From Ilumatobacteraceae bacterium (GTDB taxonomy: Bacteria; Actinomycetota; Acidimicrobiia; Acidimicrobiales; Ilumatobacteraceae), in NCBI GenBank assembly GCA_050248155.1, contig JBFWSW010000005.1, positions 17,578-81,577 on the forward strand: a stretch of 64,000 nucleotides of DNA. Direction: 5' to 3'. Positions 2,720-14,503 of this stretch are shown one piece after another; positions within the stretch are counted from its first letter, which is position 1; each line of letters starts with the position of its first letter. Under the pieces are notes generated by a model that ran no database searches, was not told the DNA's origin, and saw nothing but the letters and a program-made list of their open reading frames with translations. Made by a program: the position numbers and the translations under genes.

Positions 2720-4036
2720 ATGACCAACCCTTCGTCGATCGTCACCGACGTGCTCGACGAGCTCGACGCGTGGCTCGCCGAGAACTGGGATCCCGACCTG
2801 ACGGTCGCGGAGTGGTGGAACCGGCTCGGTCTCAGCGGCTGGGCCGCTCCCTCGCTGCCCTCGTCGGCCTACGGCAAGGACCTGTCGCGCAACGACGCCA
2901 TCGCGGTCGCGCGGCGCATCGTCGAGCGGGGCGCGCTGGCCGCACCCGGGGGACTCGGCATGCTGCTCGCCGCGCCGACGATCGCGACTCACGGCACACC
3001 CGAGCAGATCGAGCGCTTCGTCCGACCGATCGTCACCGGCGCACACGCCTGGTGCCAGCTGTTCAGCGAGCCCGGTGCCGGGTCCGATCTCGCCGGCCTC
3101 GGCACACGTGCGACGCGCGACGGCGACGAGTGGGTGGTGAACGGCCAGAAGGTCTGGACGTCAGGTGGGCAGATCGCCGACATGGGGATGCTCATCGCGC
3201 GCACCGCGCCCGAGGTGCCCAAGCACCAGGGCATCAGCTGGTTCGCCTTCGACATGCACCAGCCGGCCGCGGTCGACGTCCGACCGCTGCGCGAGATGAC
3301 CGGACGCTCGCTCTTCAACGAGGTGTTCCTCAGCGACGCGCGAGTGGACGACGACGCGCTCGTCGGAGGGCTCCACAACGGCTGGTCGGTCGCCAACACG
3401 ACGCTCGCCTTCGAGCGGAGCGGCCTGGGCGCGGGTGCAGGCGCCGCTGCTGCGCTCGCCAACCCCGGCACGATCGCAGGCGACCTCCCCAAGCGAGCCG
3501 GCGACTTCGCGGCGAAGGCACGAACCCCCGGATCGGGCGGCAGCGGCGCTGCGATCACGGCGGGCTCGCAGCGGATGTTCACCGAGCTCGCCAAGGCCAA
3601 CGGCAAGATCGCCGACCCGACGATCCGTCAGGCGCTGATGCGCCTGCACACGTTGAGCGAGATCGGCCGCTTCACGATGCTGCGCCTGAAGGCCGAGAAG
3701 GCCGCGGGGCGCGACATCCCCGGCGCGGGGAACATCGCCAAGCTCTCGATGAGCGAGATCGTGCGACAGTCACGCGATCTCGGGCTCGCCGTCACCGGCG
3801 CGTACGGCACGTTGCACGGCTACGATCGCGCGTCGGCGACCGCGCTCGAGCATGCGACCGGCAACCCCTACCTCGGCTTCGTCACCGAGATGGCGCTGTT
3901 CGCCCAGGCACCTCCCATCTACGGCGGCACCGACCAGGTGCAGCGCAACATCCTCGGCGAGCGGGTGCTCGGTCTCCCGAAGGAGCCGAACAACGATCGA
4001 GTGGTGCCCTGGAGCGAGCTACCGAAGAACGGTTGA
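2720..4036 (+). CDS. Acyl-CoA dehydrogenase family protein
   Basis: Contains WCQLFSEPGAGSDLAGLGTRATRDGDEWVVNGQKVWTSGG and a C-terminal IYGGTDQVQRNILGERVLGLP. The start was set at ATG 2720 (MTNPSS), in frame with track ORF 2435..4036. Confidence 0.85.
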   Translation: MTNPSSIVTDVLDELDAWLAENWDPDLTVAEWWNRLGLSGWAAPSLPSSAYGKDLSRNDAIAVARRIVERGALAAPGGLGMLLAAPTIATHGTPEQIERFVRPIVTGAHAWCQLFSEPGAGSDLAGLGTRATRDGDEWVVNGQKVWTSGGQIADMGMLIARTAPEVPKHQGISWFAFDMHQPAAVDVRPLREMTGRSLFNEVFLSDARVDDDALVGGLHNGWSVANTTLAFERSGLGAGAGAAAALANPGTIAGDLPKRAGDFAAKARTPGSGGSGAAITAGSQRMFTELAKANGKIADPTIRQALMRLHTLSEIGRFTMLRLKAEKAAGRDIPGAGNIAKLSMSEIVRQSRDLGLAVTGAYGTLHGYDRASATALEHATGNPYLGFVTEMALFAQAPPIYGGTDQVQRNILGERVLGLPKEPNNDRVVPWSELPKNG

Positions 4037-7000
4037 TTCCGTCGGCGGTGCCGTCATCTCCGGGGCGACGGCCACCCCGTCACCGCCCGTGCGCTTCGCG
4101 GTGTACATCGCATGGTCGGCGGCCATCAGCAGCGCGTCCGGGTCGGCCGTCCCACCCCGCTGGTGGGCGACGCCCACGCTGGCGCCGAGGTGCACGGTCA
4201 CCTCGGCGACCGACAGCGGCACACCGATGCTCTCGACGATGCGTCGTGCGATCGAGAGCGCTCCGGCCCTGTCGGTCTCGGGGCAGAGCACGACGAACTC
4301 GTCACCGCCCGTGCGCGCGACGGTGTCGGAAGGACGCGCGAGCGATCGGAGGCGGGAGGCGACGACCTGCAGCACCTCGTCACCGACCGCATGACCCCAG
4401 GTGTCGTTCACCTCCTTGAACCCGTCGAGGTCGATCAGCAGCACCGACACGTCGTTCGTCGCTCCCCGTCGAGCGGTCGCGACCTCGAGGCGTGAGTGCA
4501 GCAGGATCCGGTTGGCCAGACCGGTGAGCGGATCGTGGAGCGCCTGCCGCTCGAGCTCGGCCTCGAGACGCTTCCGTTCGGAGATGTCGCGCACGCTCGT
4601 GCGGTACTCCATCGCTCGGCCGGTCGCCGGGTCGAGCACCTTCGACGTGGAGTTCACCACCCACACCGCACTGCCGTCGGCGCGGAGCAAGCGCATCTCC
4701 GAGCTGAACGACCCGGTCGCCTCGACCTGCACGCCCGCGGCCACGACGGCAGCTCGATCGGCCGGATGGACGAGGTCGCGCCAGTGCGAACCGATCAGCT
4801 CGTCCGGGCTCCGGCCGACGAGGAAGGTCGACGAGGGCGACACGTAGGTGATCACACCGTCGCCGTCGAAGAGCACCACCACATCGGCGGCGGTCTCGGA
4901 GAGCAGGCGGAACCGGGCCTCGCTCGAACGCAGGGCGGCGTCGAGGAGCGACCGCTCGAGCACGTGGCTGATCGTCTCGGCAACGATGCGCAAGAACGCC
5001 ACGTCGTCGTCGGTCCAGCTCCGTGCGCGACCGGCCATCGAGACGCCGACCACGCCGAACAGCTCACCGTTCGAGACCATCGGCACCGCCATCATGCCGC
5101 CCTCGACCCCCATCGAGTCGCGCTTCTCGACCACCCAGGCCTCGTCGCACCCACGCGCGTCCGATACGACGATCTGCCCGGGCTGTCGCAGGCGCTCGAT
5201 CCAGTGAGGGATGGAGTCGAAGGTGACCGCTTGGCCCCGCTCGAGGCCGGGCGGGACGCCCGCACGGATCCACCCGGCGAGGTTGACGAGTCGCTGCTGG
5301 TGCTCGTCCAACCGGTCGACGTACACGTAGTCGACCTCGAGCAGGTCGCCCACCTGTGCGCCGATCTCGGGGAGGTGTTCGATGAACTGCCCGGCATCGC
5401 GGTCGAGCGCGAGCTGGGCCACGTCGAGCAGCACACCGAGGCGCGCCTCGCTCGATCGTAGCGACGTCTCCACCTGTCGACGCGCGAGCAGCGCCGAGAC
5501 GGTGGCCGACGCGCGTTGCACGATCGCGATCTCCGGTCGGGTCCACTCGCGGACCTCGGTCGCCATCGCGACGCCGAGGTTCCCGAGGCATCGGCCTTCT
5601 GACACGAGGGGCACGTTCAGGCCGGCGCGATCGGGTACCGGGAAGGAACGCCACTCGTCGGCCCACGGTTCGTCGTGCTCCTCGATGTCGCTGACGACGA
5701 GCGGTTCGAGCGTCCGGTAGCGAGCCACGATGGCAGGCATGGTCGGCCCGTCGTCAGGGAAGACGTAGGCCCGCTCGTCGCCGCTCGCCGACCAACCTGC
5801 CACGTTGCGTACGGAGTCCCCGTCGAACAGCGCGGCAAAAGCGACGTCGGCCCGCATCGCGCGGCCGAGGTGCTCGAGGTGGACGTGCAGCCCGTTGATG
5901 ATGTCGTCCGGTTCGACCTCGAGCGCCCACTGCGACAGATCGAGGACCACACGCTCCAACTCGGCCTGGCGATCCGCGTCGGCCATCGACGCGTGGATGA
6001 GCGACATGTTGCGCATCGAGACGAGGTAGCCGCCGAGCAGCTCGTCGTACTCGCCCGACGTGTCGGCGTCGAACCAGACGTAGGAACCGTCCGCATGGCG
6101 CACTCGGAGCTCGGTCACCGGCAGCTCGCCTCCGGCCAGCGTCTGGGCGAAGCTGTCGATCGCGACGGAGTGGTCGTCGGGGTGGACGAGCTCGAGGAAG
6201 TGACGATCGACCACGTCGGTGGGCCGATGACCCAAGATGACCTGGGCCTGATCGTTCACGTACTTGATCGTGCCGGAGGCGTCGAGCACCAGCAGGACAT
6301 CGCTCAAGTTGGCCAGCATCGCCGTGAGGCGCCGTTCGCTCAAGGCGAGCGCATCGGCCGCGCGCTGGCGAACCAGCAAGTTGGCGAGGGTGTCGGCGAC
6401 CTGGGAGATCGTGTCCAGCTCGTCGTCGGTCCAGCGGTGCTCGGGGTCGACGGTGCCGACGACCAGCACACCGAGCAGCTCGCCCTCGACGCGCAGGGAC
6501 GCGAAGATGCGACCAGCGCTCTCGATCCCGGGATAGGTCTGGCGCAGCTCGACGGCCCAGTCGTCGGTCGACGACGCGTCGAAGAACGCCATGCCACCCT
6601 CGGCCAACCGCGCCACCCACCTGGGGAGCAGATCGACCGACACCTCGTCGGGCAACGCAACCGGCGGGTACCTCGGGCTCGACCAGTGCGCGATCGATCG
6701 CACCCGGCGGGTGTCCATGTCGATGCTGTTCACGTTCAGCCGATCGGCGCGGATCAGCGCGCCGAACCGGGCCAGCACCTCGTCGAGGTCGTGGAGGAAC
6801 TCGTTGCTGCTGCGATGCATCGCACCGTGCGCCACGTCGGCGGCGAACGTACCGAGCTCACGCCGTCGCTGCTCGACGCGCGTGCGCTCGTTCTCGTCGG
6901 TCACGTCCCGGCTGACAGCCGCGAAGATGCGAGTGCCCGGCCGCAGCGGATCCTCCACGACCTGGACGTCCATCACCACCTCGGTCCGGCGGCCCGAGCC

Positions 7001-9004
7001 CGGATCGACGAAGACAGCGGTGCCCGACCACTGCCCGGTCGAGCGCAGCGCAGGGAACACCTCGGCTTCCAGCCGGGCGGCCTGGTCGGCCGAGAAGAGC
7101 GTGAAGGTGTTGACCCCATGGAGCGGATCGTCGGGCGCCAGGCCGATCGCGCGACGCTGCGCTGCGTTCGCGTACACCCACTGCCCGCCGGTCTCGGCGA
7201 GGAAGACGAGGGAGGTGGTCTGTTCGATCAGGCCCTGGAACCGTGCCCGCGCCCCCTCGGCGGCCCGCCGCTGGGTGAGGTCGCGGCGCACGTGCAGCCA
7301 GTGCGTGTGTACCCCGCGCTCGTCGGAGATCGGGCTGATCGTGAGCTCGCACAGGTACGTCGAGCCGTCGGCACGGCGGCTCGCGAGCTCGCGCGTCGCC
7401 GGACCTGCCCCTACCTGCACGTGTTCGAACCAGGCGAGGTCGGCCGGATCGGCCGGATCGAGCAGCAGCATGTCGATCGACTCGCCGATCACCTGCTCGC
7501 GCCGGAACCCGGTCTCGGCCTCGAACGCGTCGTTGACGTACACGATCGGGGGTCGGCGGCCGCCGCCGACCGCGGCCGTCACCATCACCGAGTCGTGGGC
7601 GGTGTCGAACGCGCTGAGCAGCAACCGCGTGCGCGGCGACAGGATCTGCGGCAGCTCGTCCGCACGCGTCGACGTGGTACCCGAGGTGGGAGCCGCCGCG
7701 CCGCACCAGGGAAGGTCGATCAGCGGGTCGAGCAGGTCGGGATCCATGGGACGCCCGAAGTGGAAGCCCTGGGCGCTGTCGGCGCCCATGCGCACCAGCG
7801 CGTCCGCCTGGCCCACGTGTTCCACGCCCTCGGCGACGACGCGCAGCCCCAGCGCGTGAGCGAGATCGATCACGGCCTCGACGATGACCTCGTCGGCGAG
7901 CGACCCGCCGATGCCGGCGACGAACTGCTGGTCGATCTTCACCGTGGTGACCGGCAACTGGCGAAGGTACGACAACGGGGAGTAGCCCGTGCCGAAGTCA
8001 TCGAGTGCCAGCTCGACCCCGAGGTCGCGCAACGCCGACAGGACGCCCACGGCGCTCGGCAGGTCCTCGAGCAGGCTCGACTCGGTGACCTCGAAGCCGA
8101 TGCTCTGCGGCGTGATCCGCCCCGACGAGATCGCATCGTGGACTCGGTCGCGCACGTGCTCGCCCGCAGCGAGCTGCTGCGCGGCGAGGTTGACCCACAC
8201 CCTGATCGGTGCGCCGTCCCGTCGGGTCCGCCAGCGTGCCGCGAGCTCGATCGCCTCGTCGAGCACCCAGTCGCCGATCACCACCATCAGCCCCACCGAC
8301 TCCGCAGCCGGCAGGAACGCTGCAGGCACGAGCAGACCATCGGTCGGGTGCTGCCACCGCAGCAGAGCCTCGACCCCGACCACCGCGCCGGTGGACAGGT
8401 CGACCTTCGGCTGGGCCAACAGCCGGAGCTCTCGATCGACGAGCGCCCGCCGCAGTCCGTCCTCGATGCGCTGTCGGCGATCGGCTTCGGCACCGAGCGC
8501 GCCCTCGTAGCCGACGACGGTGCCAGGAGCCGTGGCCTTGGCCTTTCGGCAGGCCACGAAGGCTCGCTCGACGAGATCGACGCGGCGGTCGCCCGCTGCT
8601 CGGCACGCGAGACCGGCGCTCGCGTGCACGACGACGACCTGGTCGTCGACGGTGATCGGCTGACGGATCACGGCCAGCAGATGCTCGGCCGTCGTCCGGG
8701 TGGCGTCGGGATCCGCGCCGAGGACGCCGACGACGAACGCATCGCGGTCGACGTTCGCCACGAGCGCTTGGTCCGGCACGCCCGTGAGCACTCGGCGAGC
8801 GACCTCGGCGAGCACCAGATCGCCGACCTCGTGCCCGAACCGGGTGTTGACCTGGTGGAACCTGTCGAGATCGAGGTGGATCACCCCCGCGCGAAGTCCG
8901 GACCGCTGCGCGCGTTCGAGGCGCGCGAGCAACTGGACGCGCTCGACGCGCTCAGCAGGACACCCGCTCGCGCGCGGCGCCACGGGGTCGTCGGTGACGG
9001 ACAT
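4019..9004 (-). CDS. Multidomain c-di-GMP signalling protein: degenerate GGDEF - EAL - PAS/GAF sensor array - GGDEF
   Basis: 1661-aa ORF. The N-terminal GGDEF-like domain has DRDAF in place of GGDEF. EAL motifs are present: EALLR, DDFGTGYS, KIDQQF, AEGVE, QGFHFGRP. Several PAS and GAF-like blocks follow. The C-terminal domain reads RPSDTVARTGGDEFVV (RxxD I-site plus GGDEF). Confidence 0.9.
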   Translation of the reverse strand: MSVTDDPVAPRASGCPAERVERVQLLARLERAQRSGLRAGVIHLDLDRFHQVNTRFGHEVGDLVLAEVARRVLTGVPDQALVANVDRDAFVVGVLGADPDATRTTAEHLLAVIRQPITVDDQVVVVHASAGLACRAAGDRRVDLVERAFVACRKAKATAPGTVVGYEGALGAEADRRQRIEDGLRRALVDRELRLLAQPKVDLSTGAVVGVEALLRWQHPTDGLLVPAAFLPAAESVGLMVVIGDWVLDEAIELAARWRTRRDGAPIRVWVNLAAQQLAAGEHVRDRVHDAISSGRITPQSIGFEVTESSLLEDLPSAVGVLSALRDLGVELALDDFGTGYSPLSYLRQLPVTTVKIDQQFVAGIGGSLADEVIVEAVIDLAHALGLRVVAEGVEHVGQADALVRMGADSAQGFHFGRPMDPDLLDPLIDLPWCGAAAPTSGTTSTRADELPQILSPRTRLLLSAFDTAHDSVMVTAAVGGGRRPPIVYVNDAFEAETGFRREQVIGESIDMLLLDPADPADLAWFEHVQVGAGPATRELASRRADGSTYLCELTISPISDERGVHTHWLHVRRDLTQRRAAEGARARFQGLIEQTTSLVFLAETGGQWVYANAAQRRAIGLAPDDPLHGVNTFTLFSADQAARLEAEVFPALRSTGQWSGTAVFVDPGSGRRTEVVMDVQVVEDPLRPGTRIFAAVSRDVTDENERTRVEQRRRELGTFAADVAHGAMHRSSNEFLHDLDEVLARFGALIRADRLNVNSIDMDTRRVRSIAHWSSPRYPPVALPDEVSVDLLPRWVARLAEGGMAFFDASSTDDWAVELRQTYPGIESAGRIFASLRVEGELLGVLVVGTVDPEHRWTDDELDTISQVADTLANLLVRQRAADALALSERRLTAMLANLSDVLLVLDASGTIKYVNDQAQVILGHRPTDVVDRHFLELVHPDDHSVAIDSFAQTLAGGELPVTELRVRHADGSYVWFDADTSGEYDELLGGYLVSMRNMSLIHASMADADRQAELERVVLDLSQWALEVEPDDIINGLHVHLEHLGRAMRADVAFAALFDGDSVRNVAGWSASGDERAYVFPDDGPTMPAIVARYRTLEPLVVSDIEEHDEPWADEWRSFPVPDRAGLNVPLVSEGRCLGNLGVAMATEVREWTRPEIAIVQRASATVSALLARRQVETSLRSSEARLGVLLDVAQLALDRDAGQFIEHLPEIGAQVGDLLEVDYVYVDRLDEHQQRLVNLAGWIRAGVPPGLERGQAVTFDSIPHWIERLRQPGQIVVSDARGCDEAWVVEKRDSMGVEGGMMAVPMVSNGELFGVVGVSMAGRARSWTDDDVAFLRIVAETISHVLERSLLDAALRSSEARFRLLSETAADVVVLFDGDGVITYVSPSSTFLVGRSPDELIGSHWRDLVHPADRAAVVAAGVQVEATGSFSSEMRLLRADGSAVWVVNSTSKVLDPATGRAMEYRTSVRDISERKRLEAELERQALHDPLTGLANRILLHSRLEVATARRGATNDVSVLLIDLDGFKEVNDTWGHAVGDEVLQVVASRLRSLARPSDTVARTGGDEFVVLCPETDRAGALSIARRIVESIGVPLSVAEVTVHLGASVGVAHQRGGTADPDALLMAADHAMYTAKRTGGDGVAVAPEMTAPPTESTVLR

Positions 9005-9080: not shown

Positions 9081-10295
9081 TCAGCGGCGCGTGTCCCCGT
9101 CGGTCTCGAGCAGCGCGGCCCGGCCGGGTTCGACGAGCAGTTCGGTCGTACGAGATCGATGCCATTCCCGGCTCGCCGCGACGATCACGGCGGTCAGCGG
9201 GACGGCGAGGAACGCGCCGGCGATGCCTCCCACCACGCCACCGGCGGCGAGCACCAGCAGGATGACGAGCGGATGCAGGTTGACCGCGCCGCTCATCACC
9301 ACCGGTTGCAGGAAGTCCCCGTCGAGCTGCTGCATGACGAGGAGCACCACCGCGACGATCACTGCCTGCGTGGTGCCGACGGTGACGAAGGTGGCCAGGA
9401 CCGCCGTCGCGCTGGCGACGACGGCACCGATGAGTGGGAAGAACGCGGCGAGCCAGGTGAGCAGCGCGAGCGGCACGGCCATCGGGACGCCCATGATCAA
9501 CAGCATCACGAGCACGATGACCGCCTCGACGAGACCGATGATCATCGTCCCTCGCAGGTAGCCGCGCAGCGCTCGCCACGCGGCATGCCCGAGGCGGCGC
9601 ACCTCGCTCTGCCGGCCATCGGGGAACCGGCTGATGCACCAGTCGCGGATGCGCCGGCCGTCGTGGAGCGTGAAGAAGAACACCACCAGCGTCAGCAGGA
9701 TGCCGGAGACGACGGCCACGACGGTCCGCCCGTAGCTCCGCGCCTGTGGCCCTTCGACGAAGCGTCGCGCCTGGGCATGGACACGATCGCTGATGCCCTG
9801 GACCTGATCGGCGGACAGGTTGAGAGGTGATCCCTGTGCCCATTCCCGCGCGTCGTCCAGGCCTTGGTTGATCGTCGTGTCGAGGTCGTCGAACTGGCTG
9901 CGTGCCCCGAGGACCGTTGCGGTGGCCACACCTCCCACGATGAGGAGCGGGAGGAGGAACGCGAGCCACGTCGCCAGCAGTGGCCGCACGTGATGGCGCT
10001 CACACCACGCCTTCACCGGCCACACGGCGACCACGAGCAGCAGGGCGACCAGCACAGGCAGCACCACGACCCAGACCCGGCCGACGATCTTCGAGGCGAT
10101 CCAGAGCGCGACGGCGACGAGGATGAGCCGCCAGCTGGCGGCGGCGCACGTGTCGAGTGCGCGCCAGCCGATCGAACGCCGAGGGATCGGCGACGCCGCC
10201 AGCGGGGTGCTCGCCGGCGAGGAGGCCTCGTTGTCGACCAACGGTCGCGACAGGTCGGTCACCCCGCCCGGGTTCCCGAACCCTCCGTCACTCAA
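9081..10295 (-). CDS. AI-2E family transporter (PerM/UPF0118-like permease)
   Basis: 404-aa polytopic membrane ORF. The C-terminal FLQPVVMSGAVNLHPLVILLVLAAGGVVGGIAGAFLAVPL is typical of the family. Confidence 0.8.
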   Translation of the reverse strand: MSDGGFGNPGGVTDLSRPLVDNEASSPASTPLAASPIPRRSIGWRALDTCAAASWRLILVAVALWIASKIVGRVWVVVLPVLVALLLVVAVWPVKAWCERHHVRPLLATWLAFLLPLLIVGGVATATVLGARSQFDDLDTTINQGLDDAREWAQGSPLNLSADQVQGISDRVHAQARRFVEGPQARSYGRTVVAVVSGILLTLVVFFFTLHDGRRIRDWCISRFPDGRQSEVRRLGHAAWRALRGYLRGTMIIGLVEAVIVLVMLLIMGVPMAVPLALLTWLAAFFPLIGAVVASATAVLATFVTVGTTQAVIVAVVLLVMQQLDGDFLQPVVMSGAVNLHPLVILLVLAAGGVVGGIAGAFLAVPLTAVIVAASREWHRSRTTELLVEPGRAALLETDGDTRR

Positions 10296-10338
10296 ACGAG
10301 TGTGATGAGGACGCGGTCAGCGCGATGCGCCCGGAGTG

Positions 10339-10731
10339 TCAGGCGGGAGGGCGCCGGGCGCCTCTCCGGCCGACCGCGCCGCGCAGCCCGACGCAACCGA
10401 CACAGCCCACGCAATCGACGCAGTCGATGCAGCCGACGCAGGCGACGCATCGGCGGCATCGGATGCAGCCGAGCGTCGCCACGCACATCGTGATGCCGAC
10501 GCCGAAGGCCGTGAGCACGCTGGCCACCACGCCCACGCTGCCGGACGTCGCCGCGCTGCCCGCGACCGCGACGCTGCCCGACGTAGCTGCGCAGCCCGCG
10601 ACGGCGACGCTGCCGGCTGTCGCCACGCTCCCCGCGATCGCCACGCTGCCGGCGGTGGCGACGCTGCCCGCGACCGCCAGGCTGCCGGCCGTCGTCAACC
10701 CGCCGGCGCGTCTCGGTGGTCGACCTCGCAT
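10339..10731 (-). CDS. Hypothetical repeat-built small membrane/Cys-rich protein (130 aa)
   Basis: This is the internal ATG of track ORF 10339..12003. The ORF fits the gap between neighbouring same-strand genes. Its layout is a basic N-terminus, AGSVAx hexapeptide repeats, a hydrophobic segment, then 9 Cys at every third residue. The antisense frame shares the same wobble positions, so codon bias is uninformative. Confidence 0.4.
   Translation of the reverse strand: MRGRPPRRAGGLTTAGSLAVAGSVATAGSVAIAGSVATAGSVAVAGCAATSGSVAVAGSAATSGSVGVVASVLTAFGVGITMCVATLGCIRCRRCVACVGCIDCVDCVGCVGCVGLRGAVGRRGARRPPA
10393..10467. repeat. Tandem 9-nt repeat, about 9 copies
   Basis: Plus strand reads cgacgcaac cgacacagc ccacgcaat cgacgcagt cgatgcagc cgacgcagg cgacgcatc ggcggcatc ggatgcagc. 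On the minus strand this gives TGC-NNN-NNN units. Confidence 0.85.
10534..10689. repeat. Tandem 18-nt repeat, about 8-9 copies
   Basis: Plus-strand units resemble gccacgctgccggcggtg / gcgacgctgcccgcgacc, repeated head to tail. Confidence 0.85.
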
Positions 10732-10748
10732 CGCGCCAGCATGGCACG

Positions 10749-12101
10749 TCAGTCCGCAGTCGCAGACGTCTCGACCGGCGGAGGCGAGAACGTCGCCCCA
10801 CCGGTTCGTCCGTCGAAGCTTCCGATCAGGAGCACGCCGTCGCCGATCCACACCGGCGTCGCCCCCGGCGCACCGCCGCAGCAGCTGTCGACCCACCGGT
10901 CGGTCGCGACGTCGTAGACCGCTGCCGCGCCCTTGGCGAACATGACGACCTGCGTCCCCGTCCACACCGGCACGAAGCCGGGATGGGCGAAGCCCGACGT
11001 GATCGACCGCCAGCTGTCGGTCGCCGGGTCGTACGCGGCCCCGTCCGACAAGGCCATCGCCCCGTCGAAGGTGTCGGCCGCCCCACCCGTCGACCCGGCG
11101 TCGACGATCATCTCGGTCCCGGTCCACACCGCCCACACCCGGCGCGCCGACAACGGCGAGTCGGCGAGCACTCGCCATGTCGCCGTGACCGGGTCGTAGG
11201 CCGCGCCGTCGTCGATCTCGACACCGCCGGCCGTGCCACCCCAGATCAACCACTCCGTCCCCGTCCACACCGAGGCTGCGTGCGTCCGAGGCACGATCGG
11301 GGCTGCTCCGAGCGACTTCCACGAATCGGAGGACGGGTCGTAGGCCATCGGCCCAGGGGCCGCTGCGGACCAGACGAGCAGCTCGCCACCCGTCCACGCC
11401 CACGGCGAGCTGCTGTCGATCGCCCCGAACGGCGGCGCCGTCGCGCGCCACGAGTCCGACGCGGGATCGAACGCGTGACCCGCCGATGCGGGGGCCGAGG
11501 CCGGACCCGACATCGAGCCGGCGGTCCCGCCGATCACCAGCATCTCGCCCCCGGTCCACAGGACCAGCGGATCGACCGTCGTCACCGGCGGGTCGGCCAG
11601 CCGGCGCCACGAGCGAGCGGCCGGGTCGTAGGACACCGCGTCGGGCCGGAGAGTGCCGTCCTCGTCGGTCCCACCCACGACGAGGGCTTCCGATCCCGTC
11701 CAGACGACCGACGGGACCACGCGCACGCCATCCGGATCGGCGGGGATGGGCGTCCATTCGCCGGGGAGGCCAGACGAGTCCACGGCGGTCGAGTCGGGTG
11801 CGGGCGCCGACGGAACGACTGGCTCGTTCACCTGGCTCGCCGACGGGAACGGCGGCGCAGCGCTCGTCGGAACCCCATCGCTCGCCGGCACCACCGACGG
11901 ATCGGACCGGAGCGCCCACAGCGCCCCGCCCCCCACAGCGACGAGCACGACGCAACCGATCCCCGCCATGGCTCGATTCCTGGCACGGTGGCGTCGCTCC
12001 CATCGCACCGCCCGACTCTGCACCTCGTCGATGGAGGTCACCGACGCGTGGTCGATCGATGCCAGGTGATCGCGGAGGTGTCGTTCGATCCGATCGCTCA
12101 T
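10749..12101 (-). CDS. Single-pass membrane protein with extracytoplasmic Kelch-like 7-bladed beta-propeller; putative anti-sigma factor
   Basis: The start ATG 12101 overlaps the sigma-factor stop (ATGA). The protein has a short N-terminal segment, a TM helix (GIGCVVLVAVGGGALWAL), and seven W(T/I)G..(L/M)(V/I).GG repeats. Confidence 0.7.
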   Translation of the reverse strand: MSDRIERHLRDHLASIDHASVTSIDEVQSRAVRWERRHRARNRAMAGIGCVVLVAVGGGALWALRSDPSVVPASDGVPTSAAPPFPSASQVNEPVVPSAPAPDSTAVDSSGLPGEWTPIPADPDGVRVVPSVVWTGSEALVVGGTDEDGTLRPDAVSYDPAARSWRRLADPPVTTVDPLVLWTGGEMLVIGGTAGSMSGPASAPASAGHAFDPASDSWRATAPPFGAIDSSSPWAWTGGELLVWSAAAPGPMAYDPSSDSWKSLGAAPIVPRTHAASVWTGTEWLIWGGTAGGVEIDDGAAYDPVTATWRVLADSPLSARRVWAVWTGTEMIVDAGSTGGAADTFDGAMALSDGAAYDPATDSWRSITSGFAHPGFVPVWTGTQVVMFAKGAAAVYDVATDRWVDSCCGGAPGATPVWIGDGVLLIGSFDGRTGGATFSPPPVETSATAD

Positions 12102-12640
12102 GCCTGGTCCAGAGCCTCGATGTCGGCGCGAAGTTGCTCGAGCGCGCGCGACAGCTGCGACTTGACGGTGCCCACGCCGATGCCGAGGATCTGTGCGATG
12201 GCCGCCTCGGGCAGGTCGTCGTAGAAGCGCAGCACCACCACCGCTCGGCGCCGAGGCGGAAGCCGCAGCACCGCGCGCAGGGTGCGATCGCGTTCGGCGG
12301 TCACGGTGTCGAACGGCGCCGGCTGCTGCATCCAGTCGAGGGTGGCGTGATCGCGCCGATGCGCGAGCGCCAGGCGCCGCCATCGCCGCGACGCGAGGTT
12401 CACGACGACGCGCCGCACGTACGCGGGGGCGTCGTCGACCGTGCCGCTGCGCCACTTCGGCAACGTCCGGGCGATGGCCTCGGCGACCAGGTCGTCGGCA
12501 CCGTCGGCGGTGCCGACCAGCAGCCTCGCGACCCGCTGGATCCGTGGCAGGGCATCAGCGAGCGCCGCGATGAACAGGGCATCGATCGGCGAGACGTCCA
12601 CCCCGTCGCGCGGGCGCGACGAGAGGGCCCCGTGATCCAT
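12098..12640 (-). CDS. ECF-type RNA polymerase sigma factor
   Basis: The last 180 codons of track ORF 12098..14515 begin MDHGALSS. The region 4 HTH reads VVVLRFYDDLPEAAIAQILGIGVGTVKSQLSRALEQL. The upstream part of that ORF is antisense to the S8 protease gene. Confidence 0.85.
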   Translation of the reverse strand: MDHGALSSRPRDGVDVSPIDALFIAALADALPRIQRVARLLVGTADGADDLVAEAIARTLPKWRSGTVDDAPAYVRRVVVNLASRRWRRLALAHRRDHATLDWMQQPAPFDTVTAERDRTLRAVLRLPPRRRAVVVLRFYDDLPEAAIAQILGIGVGTVKSQLSRALEQLRADIEALDQA

Positions 12641-12717: not shown

Positions 12718-12799
12718 TGACCACGTGCAGGGGGCTACGGTGAGCGCCAACACACACAGACCGGGTGGGGACGAACAGCGGGCCGAACTGGAGGAGTTC

Positions 12800-14503
12800 A
12801 TGAGAGCCAGCAAGTCCATCGCCCTCCTGGGCGTGCTCTCGTTGCTGCCCGTGCTGGCAGCGACGAACACGCCAGTGAGTGCTGAGGAAGAACGCGAGGC
12901 GACCTTCGTCGTGCTCGCCGCCGACGCCGCAACGACCGACGCGGCGGTGGCCTCGGTCGAGGCGGCCGGCGGCCAGGTGACGGCGGTCAACCGCGACATC
13001 GGCCTGCTGTCGGTGACAGCCCCGGCAACCGAGTTCGCCGGCGCCATGGCCGGCGACCCGGCCATCACCGGCGTCGCCCGAGACGTGTCGATCGGTTCGG
13101 CGCCGGTCGACACCGTCACGCGAACGAAGGCGGTCGAGCAGGAGGGCCGCCTCGCCGGCCCATCCGCGCCCAACACGCAGGCATACCCGAAGCCGCGCGG
13201 CCACGGCCACGCGGTGACGCCCGAGCCGCTCGCGCCGTTGCAGTGGGACATGGCGATGATCGGGGCGACAGCCGACGGGTCGTACCGCAAGCAACCGGGT
13301 CGCCGCGACGTGCTGGTCGGGGTGATCGACACGGGCATCGACGCGTCGCATCCCGACATCGCACCCAACTTCAACTCGTGGTTGAGCCGCAACTTCACGA
13401 CCGACATCGAGCTCATCGACGGGCCGTGCGCGGAGGAACCCGATCAGTCGTGCGAAGACCCGGCCGACGTCGACGAGGGCGGTCACGGCACGCACGTCGC
13501 GTCGACGATCGCCGCGCCGATCAACGGCCTCGGCATCGCGGGCGTCGCACCGAACGTCACGCTCGTCAACCTGCGCGCCGGCCAGGACTCGGGCTACTTC
13601 TTCCTGCAGCCGACGGTGGACGCGCTGACCTTCGCGGCGAACCACGGCATCGACGTCGTGAACATGAGCTTCTACATCGATCCCTGGCTGTTCAACTGCA
13701 CGGCGAACCCCGCCGACACACCCGAGCAGCAGGCCGAGCAGCAGCTCATCATCACTGCGACGCAGCGAGCACTCGATTACGCGCGCCGCCGCGGCGTCAC
13801 CCTCGTCGCTGCACTCGGCAACGACCACACCGACCTCGGCAACCCGACCGTCGACGAGACCAGCCCCGACTACCCGCCGGACACCGCGTACCCGCGTGTG
13901 GTGGACAACACCTGTCTCGACATGCCGACCGAGGGTCGGGGCGTCATCAGCGTGTCGTCGGTCGGTCCGAGCGGGGCCAAGAGCGACTTCTCGAACCACG
14001 GGCTCGAGCAGAACGACGTCGCGGCCCCCGGTGGCTGGTTCCGCGACTTCTTCGGCACGCCGCAGTTCCGGACGAACGAGAACCTCGTCCTCGGCGCGAT
14101 GCCGAAGGATCTCGCCATCGCCTCCGGGCTCGTCGACCCGACCACAGGCCAGTCGCTCGACGGCTCGATCGTCGCGCAGTGCTCGGGCGCGACGATCGAC
14201 ACGTGCGCGTACTACGAGTACCTGCAGGGCACGTCGATGGCATCGCCGCACGCGGCGGGTGTCGCCGCGCTCATCGTCAGCACGTACGGCCACCGCACCT
14301 GGTGGGGCGGGCGCGCGATGAACCCGCGCGTCGTCGAGAAGATCCTCCTGAGGACCGCGACCGACACGCCTTGCCCGGCGCCCGTGATCACCTACGTGAA
14401 CGAGGGTCGCGACGCCACGTGGGACGCGCCGTGCGTGGGAACCCCGGAGCGGAACTCCATCTACGGCGAGGGCATCGTGAACGCGCTCGCAGCCGTGAGC
14501 TGA
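12800..14503 (+). CDS. Secreted S8 family (subtilisin-like) serine peptidase
   Basis: The signal peptide reads MRASKSIALLGVLSLLPVLAATNTPVSA. The catalytic triad is in VIDTGIDASHPD, GGHGTHVAST and GTSMASPHAAG. Confidence 0.9.
   Translation: MRASKSIALLGVLSLLPVLAATNTPVSAEEEREATFVVLAADAATTDAAVASVEAAGGQVTAVNRDIGLLSVTAPATEFAGAMAGDPAITGVARDVSIGSAPVDTVTRTKAVEQEGRLAGPSAPNTQAYPKPRGHGHAVTPEPLAPLQWDMAMIGATADGSYRKQPGRRDVLVGVIDTGIDASHPDIAPNFNSWLSRNFTTDIELIDGPCAEEPDQSCEDPADVDEGGHGTHVASTIAAPINGLGIAGVAPNVTLVNLRAGQDSGYFFLQPTVDALTFAANHGIDVVNMSFYIDPWLFNCTANPADTPEQQAEQQLIITATQRALDYARRRGVTLVAALGNDHTDLGNPTVDETSPDYPPDTAYPRVVDNTCLDMPTEGRGVISVSSVGPSGAKSDFSNHGLEQNDVAAPGGWFRDFFGTPQFRTNENLVLGAMPKDLAIASGLVDPTTGQSLDGSIVAQCSGATIDTCAYYEYLQGTSMASPHAAGVAALIVSTYGHRTWWGGRAMNPRVVEKILLRTATDTPCPAPVITYVNEGRDATWDAPCVGTPERNSIYGEGIVNALAAVS

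Follow-up and report, generated by a model that had tools for sequence, protein, structure and literature searches.

The described systems closest to the protein discussed here are β-helix proteins built from short repeats. The Tenebrio molitor antifreeze protein (TmAFP; PDB entries 1EZG and 1L1I) is a secreted, disulfide-bonded insect protein that folds into a β-helix with 12-residue coils and an internal cysteine ladder. It is small and consists almost entirely of a 12-residue repeat (TCTxSxxCxxAx), in which the cysteine or small residue at every sixth position lines a very narrow solenoid, and it also has a Thr ladder. The left-handed β-helix hexapeptide-repeat proteins (PF00132), such as LpxA, γ-carbonic anhydrase, and GlmU, are composed of tandem hexads with a fixed aliphatic position and with small or turn-forming neighbors. 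A protein with comparable repeats is encoded in the window, which is the whole stretch of 64,000 nucleotides analyzed here. Its tandem hexads have the same fixed aliphatic position and small or turn-forming neighbors, and its family has, like TmAFP, a period of 12 residues (the super-period VAVAGS-VATAGS), with Ser or Cys at every sixth residue and Thr at every 12th residue.

The complete coding sequence of this cysteine-ladder hexad-repeat protein (10339..10731, minus strand) has 130 codons and a TGA, with the ATG at 10731 and the stop at 10339-10341, and the translation into 130 aa is identical to that described in the earlier note. The nine cysteines with a strict three-residue spacing reported there are found at residues 89, 92, 95, 98, 101, 104, 107, 110, and 113; Cys83 is in the same mod-3 register as these ladder cysteines, and Cys47 is located inside a repeat. 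The spacers are also as described, with 17 nt separating the ORF from the stop of the Kelch gene (10749-10751) and 43 nt separating it from the AI-2E gene, which starts with TTG at 10295, and the wobble-sharing shadow frame on the plus strand is present (10157-10945). The 130-aa gene is also called in the source assembly GCA_050182155.1. The GC content of the region is 72% and the ORF's own frame is open back to 12003, so that the length of the ORF is no evidence for a gene. The layout is nevertheless more than a chance product, because it recurs in 25-45 called proteins and in no fewer than 202 genomic loci.

Relatives are found in at least 202 species genomes, with hosts in Pseudonocardia, Actinomycetospora, nontuberculous Mycobacterium, Acidimicrobiia/Ilumatobacteraceae, and others. 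The family consists of so-far undescribed, small proteins of about 100-160 aa that are widespread in Actinomycetota and are labeled "hypothetical protein" in the databases. The earlier note did not recognize any characterized family with such a layout, and this is in agreement with the searches, which found no Pfam, NCBIfam, PADLOC, or PDB family: no real match was obtained in the Pfam, NCBIfam, and PADLOC scans, and PDB searches with the family profile, with the C-terminal half, and with a phage ladder protein returned noise only. The PDB collagen entry 8ZXL was matched and was rejected as compositional bias, and two entries of the exhaustive search (P0040 and P0060, being long eukaryote-like or giant repeat proteins) were set aside as unrelated low-complexity matches. 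The tblastn search of plasmids and phages gave no match, a weak result, as the low-complexity filter may have masked the query. Nothing relevant was found in Rfam for the ORF region, and text searches of the literature gave nothing pertinent on the peptide motifs of the family or on cysteine-ladder/CxxC-repeat proteins. In a collection of 15 billion proteins, all that is visible of the family is a few ORFs that are "hypothetical" or over-extended. The poor handling by gene finders is explained by the low-complexity repeat in GC-rich DNA with its open shadow frames.

Judged from its conservation at the sequence level, the ORF 10339-10731 (minus strand) is a real, conserved protein-coding gene. 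The Cys frame is open in 82/82 loci, whereas every other frame is open in at most 69 of the 82. The pairwise differences at codon positions 1, 2, and 3 are 0.25, 0.20, and 0.47, respectively, and the pN/pS ratio is lowest in the sense frame (0.40), compared with 0.56 for the wobble-sharing antisense frame and more than 1.3 for the remaining frames. The number of hexads varies between loci without breaking the frame, and the C-terminal end GLRGAVGxRGVRA is conserved and has a stop just after it, the stop codon being at most 10 codons past the GLRGAVGxRG motif in most loci. The minus-strand coding call of the earlier note is thereby borne out, as the frame, the stop, and the Cys periodicity are kept in related loci under purifying selection. 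In the checks that it had proposed, the repeat-number differences between related loci proved to be in-frame with the ORF retained, and the plus-strand frames proved less conserved than the minus frame.

It is almost certainly not the case that the ORF is a nonfunctional tract of tandem-repeat DNA, open by chance in a GC-rich genome, or that the true gene is on the plus strand. Such a tract would account for the two protein periodicities, both of which are tandem repeats at the DNA level (in the TRF output, an array of 18/36 nt covers 10533-10694 and one of 9 nt covers 10369-10449), for the long ORFs that are open in several frames at the locus, and for the sequence scan around the ORF, in which no Shine-Dalgarno, promoter, or terminator consensus was found. 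It would not account for the sense frame having the lowest pN/pS and being open, alone among the frames, in all 82 loci, nor for the preservation, across Actinomycetota classes, of the stop position and of the nonrepetitive motifs CxRCxRC and GLRGAVGxRGVRA. Against a plus-strand gene, the wobble-sharing antisense frame is interrupted in 14/82 loci, and the 193-aa plus-strand ORF (10336-10917) has no relative among 5.8 billion proteins. This protein search covered the latter ORF, whereas the wobble-sharing frame (10157-10945) was assessed by its stop codons and its pN/pS. The arrays are old and do not stem from recent slippage, since the similarity of the repeat units within a gene (0.81) is little higher than that between genomes (0.76).

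The chain begins with the N-terminal leader MRGRPPRRAGG (aa 1-11; 10699..10731, minus strand), assigned from the translation and from the closest relative, L052, which has MRGRP in common with it and in which only three codons separate the upstream stop from this Met. No signal peptide is evident in the leader, which is variable across the family and often acidic in other members. The leader is followed by ten (V/A)-A-(V|T)-A-G-S hexads (aa 12-71; 10519..10698, minus strand), as defined by TRF, hexad parsing, and the family profile; V and T alternate at position 3, which generates the 12-residue super-period, and the number of these N-terminal hexads ranges from 6 to 17 across loci, in frame every time. 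The two transition hexads, VLTAFG and VGITMC (aa 72-83; 10483..10518, minus strand), are hydrophobic and keep the hexad and the V/T phase; they correspond to the hydrophobic segment of the earlier note. In the family, hexad -7 is V-L-T-L-L-G, with the T present in 68/96 sequences, and hexad -6 ends in C in 86/96. The Cys ladder (VATLGC IRCRRC VACVGC IDCVDC VGCVGC; aa 84-113; 10393..10482, minus strand), visible in the 9-nt TRF array and in the family profile, has its cysteines at hexad positions 3 and 6. Uninterrupted ladders have nine Cys in 54 loci, 11 in 18, and 12 in 9, and all Cys of the last 75 aa are in one register in 80/82 loci; each of the last seven ladder positions is a Cys in 95-96 of the 96 sequences, and the total number of in-register Cys is 10, 11, 12, or 13 across the family. 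The basic tail (VGLRGA VGRRGA RRPPA; aa 114-130; 10342..10392, minus strand) continues the period, with a Gly at every third residue, and is directly followed by the stop codon, and GLRGAVGxRG(V)RA plus stop is conserved family-wide.

The earlier note had read the protein as repeats, a membrane anchor, and the ladder. This layout is not retained, because the register is continuous in 96/96 sequences: as read from the sequence, the chain is a single unbroken array of about 19-20 hexads, running from the first AGS unit to the C-terminus, with the consensus (V/I)-(A/G)-(V|T→C)-(A→V/I)-(G/D)-(S→C). Val or Ile occupies position 1, and small or turn-forming residues (A/G, later G/D/N) occupy positions 2 and 5. 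In the N-terminal two thirds, position 3 is V|T and position 6 is Ser, and in the last five hexads both are Cys. Residue L, I, or V is at position 1 in 73% of all hexads of the family and in 17/20 of the window protein. The register between the first AGS repeat and the last Cys is 0 mod 3 in all 96 sequences; in 77 of them the GS repeats are offset from the last ladder Cys by 0 mod 6, and in 19 by 3 mod 6. The alternation of V and T at position 3 also stays in phase through the hydrophobic hexads into the ladder.

The existence of a separate membrane anchor is likewise at odds with the comparison of the family members, as the hydrophobic hexads are in phase with the repeats and one subfamily has no distinct hydrophobic stretch. 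Hydropathy cannot single out this segment, since the ladder itself scores as high: the 19-residue Kyte-Doolittle maximum is 2.15 at aa 66-84 (family median 2.1), and elsewhere the ladder and the repeats reach 1.4-2.0. It is conceivable, though somewhat unlikely, that the protein is a bitopic membrane protein, in which aa 66-88 would form a transmembrane helix, with the AGS repeats outside the cell and the Arg-rich CxxC ladder binding metal or Fe-S on the cytoplasmic side. The hydropathy maximum is in the right place for this arrangement, the positive-inside rule fits (the medians for the ladder plus tail are 5 basic and 2 acidic residues, whereas the leaders are more often acidic), and the second AlphaFold run draws a short helix at aa 67-73. 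However, the pLDDT of this helix is only 47-56, the segment stays in step with the repeats in both hexad register and Thr phase, and the maximum is inside the ladder in many members. In P0008, P0010, P0055, and others, AG(V/I)xGS hexads pass into the ladder without a distinct hydrophobic block, and there is no signal peptide for the export of an N-terminal domain of 70-100 residues. The chain is almost uncharged for about 85 residues, a property that would suit a membrane-embedded or an aggregating protein as well as a solenoid rod.

The genes flanking the window's ORF are not conserved with the family. The upstream neighbor encodes a 450-aa Kelch-repeat protein (10749..12101, minus strand, in the source gene call), with an ECF-type sigma-70 gene (12098-12640) upstream of it, and the downstream neighbor is the AI-2E family transporter (9081..10295, minus strand); both the AI-2E and the Kelch neighbors are absent beside all 84 other loci. 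The fit to the gap and the same-strand context, which had been taken as evidence for the gene, are thus specific to this genome. The orientation of the flanking genes is random across the family loci. In the clustering of flanking ORFs, the most widely shared neighbor family occurs in at most 9 of about 80 loci, and in the Pfam census of the flanks no family is found in more than 7 of 78 flanking genes. The only synteny observed is local, such as that of an AMP-binding enzyme encoded at 7-9 Actinomycetospora/Pseudonocardia loci. An upstream DNA motif common to the loci was also sought and discarded, as all k-mers found came from the coding repeats.

As no neighboring gene is conserved, a role in a RiPP pathway or a metal operon is without support. 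The earlier note had considered a peptide substrate for modification, and no maturase-type family is present among the most frequent Pfam families of the 156 flanking genes. It is highly improbable that the protein is a RiPP precursor, in which an enzyme from another part of the genome would cross-link the Ser/Thr-rich repeats and the Cys-rich end or modify the Cys. The small size and the high content of Ser/Thr and Cys would fit a precursor, a lantibiotic (E = 0.65) is the sole sequence in the PDB matched by the family profile, and some RiPP precursors are encoded away from their maturase. Against this, the flanking genes show no enrichment of radical-SAM, LanB/C/M, YcaO, or peptidase/transporter families, the 25 most frequent Pfam families of the 78 upstream and 78 downstream neighbors include no LanB/C/M, radical-SAM/SPASM, or YcaO family, and no recurrent neighbor was found. 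The conservation pattern is also the reverse of that expected, with a variable leader (the least conserved part) and a nearly invariant C-terminal "core", and precursors do not typically combine a length of 100-160 aa with strict structural periodicity.

The last third of the chain, being the Cys ladder, probably folds as a β-helix-like rod, as judged from the structure predictions. In two AlphaFold runs, aa 84-126 have a pLDDT of 76-85 with a β-bridge at every third residue, and the ladder is modeled as a solenoid (pLDDT of about 80). The AGS repeats have a pLDDT of about 40, which did not rise when an alignment of 32 sequences was used. When the first model is compared with the PDB by Foldseek, the top match is TmAFP (E = 0.9, TM 0.13-0.17); for the second model, the top 50 matches are all left-handed β-helix proteins (E ≥ 0.03, query-normalized TM ≤ 0.21), and several hexapeptide-repeat proteins of this fold are also among the matches in BFVD. 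All these Foldseek matches are nonsignificant, with E ≥ 0.03 and TM ≤ 0.24 (query-normalized) or ≤ 0.35 (target-normalized). A metagenomic ORF with a precomputed Pfam Hexapep match (P0164) runs directly into AGS hexads and a ladder. Pfam Hexapep (PF00132) has no match at E ≤ 1 for the window protein and matches 0/46 family members, and the PROSITE PS00101-type motif [LIV]-[GAED]-x2-[STAV]-x is present in only 10-18% of the hexads in the best registers.

The Gly at every third residue over the last 5-6 triplets allows these triplets to be read in another way, as a collagen-like (G-C-V)n-G-L-R-G-A-V-G-x-R-G segment forming a short PPII-type trimer with interchain cystine or metal knots, the AGS part being a flexible or silk-like arm. 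This is very unlikely. Weak, sub-threshold-type Pfam Collagen (PF01391) matches are obtained in 32/46 members (best E = 4e-7), PHROG collagen-like tail-fiber families match the AGVxGS subfamily, and a springtail PPII antifreeze protein is among the Foldseek matches. The Pfam matches are explained by the tail with its Gly at every third residue, and the Collagen score of the window protein is 12.3 bits, compared with a gathering score of 27.2. Moreover, the conserved Asp hexad (V/I-D-C-V-D-C) interrupts the run of Gly, Pro is absent from the tail except in the final PPA, and AlphaFold shows β-bridges and not PPII helices.

Our best guess, which is a tentative one, is that the protein is a self-assembling β-solenoid rod clamped by the Cys ladder via metal binding or disulfides. 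The array would fold or assemble into a narrow rod, with coils either of 12 residues as in TmAFP, matching the 12-residue sequence period, or of 18 residues as in the left-handed β-helix, which is how AlphaFold draws the ladder. The 9-12 in-register cysteines may stack as a ladder that clamps the C-terminal turns. Given the absence of a signal peptide and the Arg-rich C-terminal end, we favor a cytoplasmic or membrane-proximal location with reduced thiols, and with reduced thiols the ladder would coordinate a row of metal ions rather than form disulfides. Such a row may consist of Zn, Cu(I), or Fe/S, bound within or between subunits. The protein would then act alone, as a structural, metal-binding, or redox element, and not as part of an operon-encoded system. 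The metal, Fe-S, or redox chemistry proposed for the ladder in the earlier note is plausible as a putative activity. The solenoid rod is less easily reconciled with the Cys totals of 10-13, which suit neither all-disulfide pairing nor simple four-Cys sites.

A bolder version of the solenoid rod has only a small chance of being correct. It would be a new metalloprotein fiber, in which a trimeric or stacked β-solenoid with 9-12 Cys per chain along its axis would hold a linear metal or Fe-S chain, the AGS rod would be a silk-like self-assembly module of variable length, and the (C-x-G/D/N)n proteins of phages would follow this structural principle in a polar form. If true, the fiber would be a "thiolate wire" for metal storage, redox buffering, or electron conduction. 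The solenoid rod itself, if correctly read, would be a minimal natural Cys-ladder β-helix, of interest to structural biologists, metalloprotein chemists, and protein designers. The gene has no family assignment and is conserved in actinobacterial species that number in the hundreds, with cultured Pseudonocardia, Actinomycetospora, and Mycobacterium among them. Its function is directly testable, because the family is clearly defined by sequence and has many cultivable hosts.

A perfectly phased hexad array that switches from Ser/Val/Thr to Cys at every third residue is unusual among bacterial proteins. With metallothioneins and CXXC zinc fingers the family shares dense, invariant cysteines and the CxxC spacing, and its ladders of 9 and 11 Cys are reminiscent of the metallothionein clusters M3Cys9 and M4Cys11. 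Metallothioneins are, however, hydrophilic and aperiodic and have C-C and C-x-C motifs, whereas here almost every Cys is followed by Val or Ile and the ladder keeps the phase of a long structural repeat. No Pfam or NCBIfam match and no significant similarity to either group was found, the best CXXC-finger match in the PDB being a weak one, to KMT2B (E = 7.9). The hexapeptide ends in G-S and has small residues at alternate positions (A-x-A-x-S), a pattern that suits tightly stacked β-sheets and resembles the crystalline (GAGAGS)n repeat of silk fibroin; the family differs in that Val/Thr replace Gly on the other face, and it is a tiny bacterial protein with a Cys-ladder end and without homology to fibroin.

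The phage phrog_15341 proteins (L086-L092) likewise repeat a Cys, a variable residue, and Gly/Asp/Asn, 10-50 times, and the PHROG profile phrog_15341 matches the window ladder with E = 5e-6. They come from low-GC phages, have a polar middle residue (S/R/K/T) and not Val/Ile, lack both the AGS hexads and the GLRGAVG tail, and have other N- and C-terminal domains. The similarity may be convergent low complexity. These phage proteins sit in phage replication modules. The hexapeptide-repeat proteins share the tandem hexads; the family has no acyltransferase or carbonic-anhydrase catalytic part, and its repeats are far more regular and are extended by the Cys ladder. TmAFP is matched by sequence (E = 2e-4) by a (C-x-[GDN])n ladder protein of phage origin that the family query retrieved. 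Compared with TmAFP, the window protein has neither the TxT ice-binding face nor a signal peptide, and in the family the cysteines occur at every third residue instead of every sixth and are confined to the last third of the chain.

The product of the cysteine-ladder ORF, read on the minus strand from the ATG at 10731 to the TGA at 10339-10341, is exactly the 130-residue protein described in the earlier note, with cysteines at residues 89, 92 ... 113; Cys83 shares the mod-3 register of this ladder and Cys47 lies inside a repeat. The periodicity of the protein is underlain by two tandem DNA arrays, one of 18/36-nt units (10533-10694) and one of 9-nt units (10369-10449). The length of the ORF is uninformative, because the window has a GC content of about 72% and the frame is open back to 12003; its GC3 is 0.88, and the plus-strand ORF 10157-10945 shares its wobble positions, as had been cautioned. 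When the loci of the family are compared, the cysteine frame is open in all 82, and the other five frames are open in 14-69 of them. Pairwise differences at codon positions 1, 2 and 3 are 0.25, 0.20 and 0.47, respectively. The sense frame has the lowest pN/pS (0.40), followed by the wobble-sharing antisense frame (0.56) and the remaining frames (1.3-1.9). In most loci the stop codon lies no more than about 10 codons past a conserved, non-repetitive GLRGAVGxRG(V)RA motif, and the repeat number varies from 6 to 17 between loci without the frame ever being broken. Accordingly, none of the observations that the earlier note had named as speaking against a gene (orthologous loci lacking the ORF, a broken minus frame or better conservation of the plus frame) is made. 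For the plus-strand ORF 10336-10917, no relative is found in a search of 5.8 billion proteins. The comparative data indicate that the cysteine-ladder ORF is a real coding sequence under selection. The rival explanation, a non-functional repeat tract, would account for the tandem arrays as such; the likeness of the repeat units is only slightly greater within a gene (0.81) than between genomes (0.76), which argues that the array is old and maintained and not a product of recent slippage.

The most conserved feature of the family is the cysteine ladder, which is an uninterrupted run of 9 cysteines in 54 loci, 11 in 18 and 12 in 9; within the last 75 residues, all cysteines are in a single mod-3 register in 80 of 82 loci. 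When the hexads of 96 sequences are anchored on the last ladder cysteine, the distance to it from the serine of the xxxxGS repeats is 0 mod 3 in all 96: it is 0 mod 6 for 77 of them and 3 mod 6 for the other 19, which make up the Mycobacterium-type and AGVxGS subfamilies. The hexad position profile is continuous from the N-terminal repeats through the ladder: position 1 is V/I in both (17 of the 20 hexads of the window protein), position 2 is A/G in the repeats and G/A/D in the ladder, position 3 changes from strictly alternating V and T to C, position 4 from A to V/I, position 5 from G to G/D/N and position 6 from S to C. The tail continues the period with a glycine at each third residue, which explains weak matches to Pfam Collagen; a collagen-like trimer is a rival reading, to which this glycine spacing belongs.

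The segment that had been taken for a separate membrane anchor consists of the hexads VLTAFG, VGITMC and VATLGC, which retain both the hexad register and the threonine phase; counted back from the last ladder cysteine, hexad -7 has its threonine in 68 of the 96 sequences and hexad -5 in 51. In one subfamily, AG(V/I)xGS hexads run straight into the ladder without a distinct hydrophobic block. Hydropathy cannot single out an anchor, because the ladder reaches about 2.0, close to the 19-residue Kyte-Doolittle maximum of about 2.1, and the repeats average 1.4. These properties lend no support to a separate anchor. In the body of about 85 residues, acidic and basic residues each have a median count of one. 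A bitopic membrane protein is still a viable model.

AlphaFold2 gives concordant models in two runs, one from an alignment of 13 sequences and one from 32: the AGS region is of low confidence (pLDDT about 40), and in residues 84-126 (pLDDT 76-85) isolated beta-bridges recur every three residues. Neither model has a significant Foldseek match, and the nearest shapes are uniformly beta-solenoids. For model 1, the top match is the cysteine-ladder beta-helix TmAFP, and those below it are mostly right-handed beta-helices (including SV2A luminal-domain entries) and a springtail PPII antifreeze protein, none of them significant. For model 2, the top 50 PDB matches are all left-handed beta-helix proteins at nonsignificant E values of 0.03-0.5, including gamma-carbonic anhydrase, GlmU, ADP-glucose pyrophosphorylase, LpxD and DapD, and several hexapeptide-repeat proteins are among its BFVD matches, one of them ranked second. 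The 12-residue super-period of the sequence would fit a TmAFP-like 12-residue coil, and the AlphaFold drawing fits a predicted 18-residue left-handed helix.

The periodicity and the medium-confidence model are best explained by a small protein that would form a narrow beta-solenoid rod, possibly oligomeric. The N-terminal two thirds would be a silk-like array of Ala/Ser versus Val/Thr with variable length, and stacked invariant cysteines would clamp the last two to three turns, ahead of the basic tail. The lack of a signal peptide and the Arg-rich C-terminal end favor reduced thiols coordinating metal over disulfides, as pure inference. Since the cysteine totals of 10, 11, 12 or 13 match neither simple pairing nor simple four-cysteine sites, such coordination would need bridging thiolates or intersubunit sites.

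In the window, the ORF lies 17 nt past the stop of the Kelch-repeat gene and 43 nt ahead of the TTG start of the AI-2E transporter gene. The genes called on this strand encode an ECF sigma factor (12098-12640, ECF-type sigma-70), the Kelch protein, the cysteine-ladder protein, the AI-2E transporter and a large PAS/GAF/GGDEF/EAL signaling protein of 1661 residues (4019-9004); the minus-strand run of 9081-12640 and 4019-9004 looks operon-like, but the arrangement is not conserved in other genomes. The Kelch beta-propeller gene overlaps the sigma factor gene by 4 nt, and its product is possibly an anti-sigma-like partner. Divergent from these two genes is a gene for a subtilisin-like S8 peptidase with a signal-peptide-like N terminus (12725-14503, plus strand). 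The fit of the ORF to its gap, on which the earlier note relied, is a feature of the window genome and not of the family, as the window neighbors stand beside no other member. Among about 80 loci, no flanking protein cluster is common to more than nine, and no Pfam family of flanking genes occurs in more than 7 of 78; shared neighbors reflect local synteny between closely related species. Flanking genes are randomly oriented, with the 3' end often 1-16 nt from a convergent gene. Neither an upstream DNA motif common to the loci nor a consensus promoter or terminator is found. An IS110-type transposase or resolvase gene is directly upstream of a family member in two metagenomic loci (L002, 2664-3338; L004, 4860-5432), and the 78-locus census has no general association of this kind. 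Plasmid and phage records give no match, a weak negative because the query may be masked for low complexity. The flanking genes are not enriched in any maturase, transporter, regulator or metal-homeostasis family; a RiPP precursor, in which the cysteine-rich peptide would be a substrate for modification, is disfavored, and the family protein evidently needs no dedicated partner encoded beside it.

Among 5.8 billion proteins, a word-indexed search gives 25 relatives that share the layout; each is either without a name or labeled "hypothetical", and the N termini of most are over-extended. A profile search gives 45, and when 1.84 billion cluster representatives are searched exhaustively with a profile, 53 matches have E <= 1e-10. 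The strong matches inspected are true members, and two long lower-ranked matches were rejected as unrelated repeat proteins. By a pattern scan of one genome per species, at least 202 species encode a relative. The best 80 of these loci come from Pseudonocardia, Actinomycetospora, nontuberculous Mycobacterium, Acidimicrobiia/Ilumatobacteraceae, Solirubrobacteraceae, Kineosporiaceae and one Polyangiaceae MAG. In Actinomycetospora the inheritance looks vertical, as many named species carry the gene. The Polyangiaceae locus (L084, DATLIL010000277.1), the sole non-actinobacterial record title among these 80, may reflect horizontal transfer or mis-binning. The closest relative, from an Ilumatobacteraceae MAG (L052), shares the MRGRP start with the window protein, and just three codons separate its upstream stop from the Met of this motif. 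The Mycobacterium-type subfamily has a 12-cysteine ladder and a CVNCSGLRNVKGARN tail; the MAG MFD05377.bin.1.164 has two paralogous copies of it on two contigs (L076 and L078). The 130-residue ORF is a called gene in NCBI assembly GCA_050182155.1 (contig JBFXCN010000002.1), though its sequence is absent from a collection of 15 billion proteins. The best 80 loci include more than 40 from RefSeq (NZ_) genomes, yet the protein searches gave just two to three NCBI-sourced proteins; annotation pipelines seem to miss or mis-call the family routinely.

Searches of Pfam, NCBIfam, PADLOC and the PDB give no match to a described family, and no description of it is found among the papers of the library searched. 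The earlier view of a real gene of a novel family is in agreement with these data, which do not support its membrane anchor and gap-fit argument; the metal or redox chemistry that it suggested for the ladder is plausible. This is a clean and widespread family, odd in structure and with essentially no annotation, and a testable definition of it is now at hand. Pfam Hexapep matches none of 46 members and the PROSITE-type hexapeptide motif is present in just 10-18% of hexads, so membership of the hexapeptide-transferase family is rejected, even if the fold is alike. A metagenomic protein of 216 residues (P0164, a single ORF on an 816-nt contig) has a precomputed Hexapep (PF00132) match that continues uninterrupted into AVAGS hexads, a cysteine ladder and a GLRFAVGLRDVHV tail; either the fusion is natural or the gene has been called too long. 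Viral contigs of low GC content (31-41%) encode proteins of the phrog_15341 family, made of 10-50 tandem C-x-[G/D/N] triplets such as CSDCRGCIGCIDCRGC..., at L086 (5902-6702, between primase, helicase and partition genes), L087, L088, L090 (two adjacent copies, 5526-5882 and 5914-6297) and L091. These proteins match no Pfam family, and one resembles TmAFP (1EZG) by sequence (E = 2e-4). The closest analogues of the family are the TmAFP-type cysteine-ladder beta-helices, the left-handed beta-helix hexapeptide proteins and the phage family phrog_15341. The (C-x-G/D/N)n ladders of the last match that of the window protein at E of about 5e-6, but the phage proteins are polar and of low GC content. 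Metallothioneins, CXXC fingers and silk are looser analogues, and membership tests place the family in none of these groups. Compared with these systems, what would be new here is a repeat protein with a beta-solenoid fold whose phased cysteine ladder is of unprecedented density.
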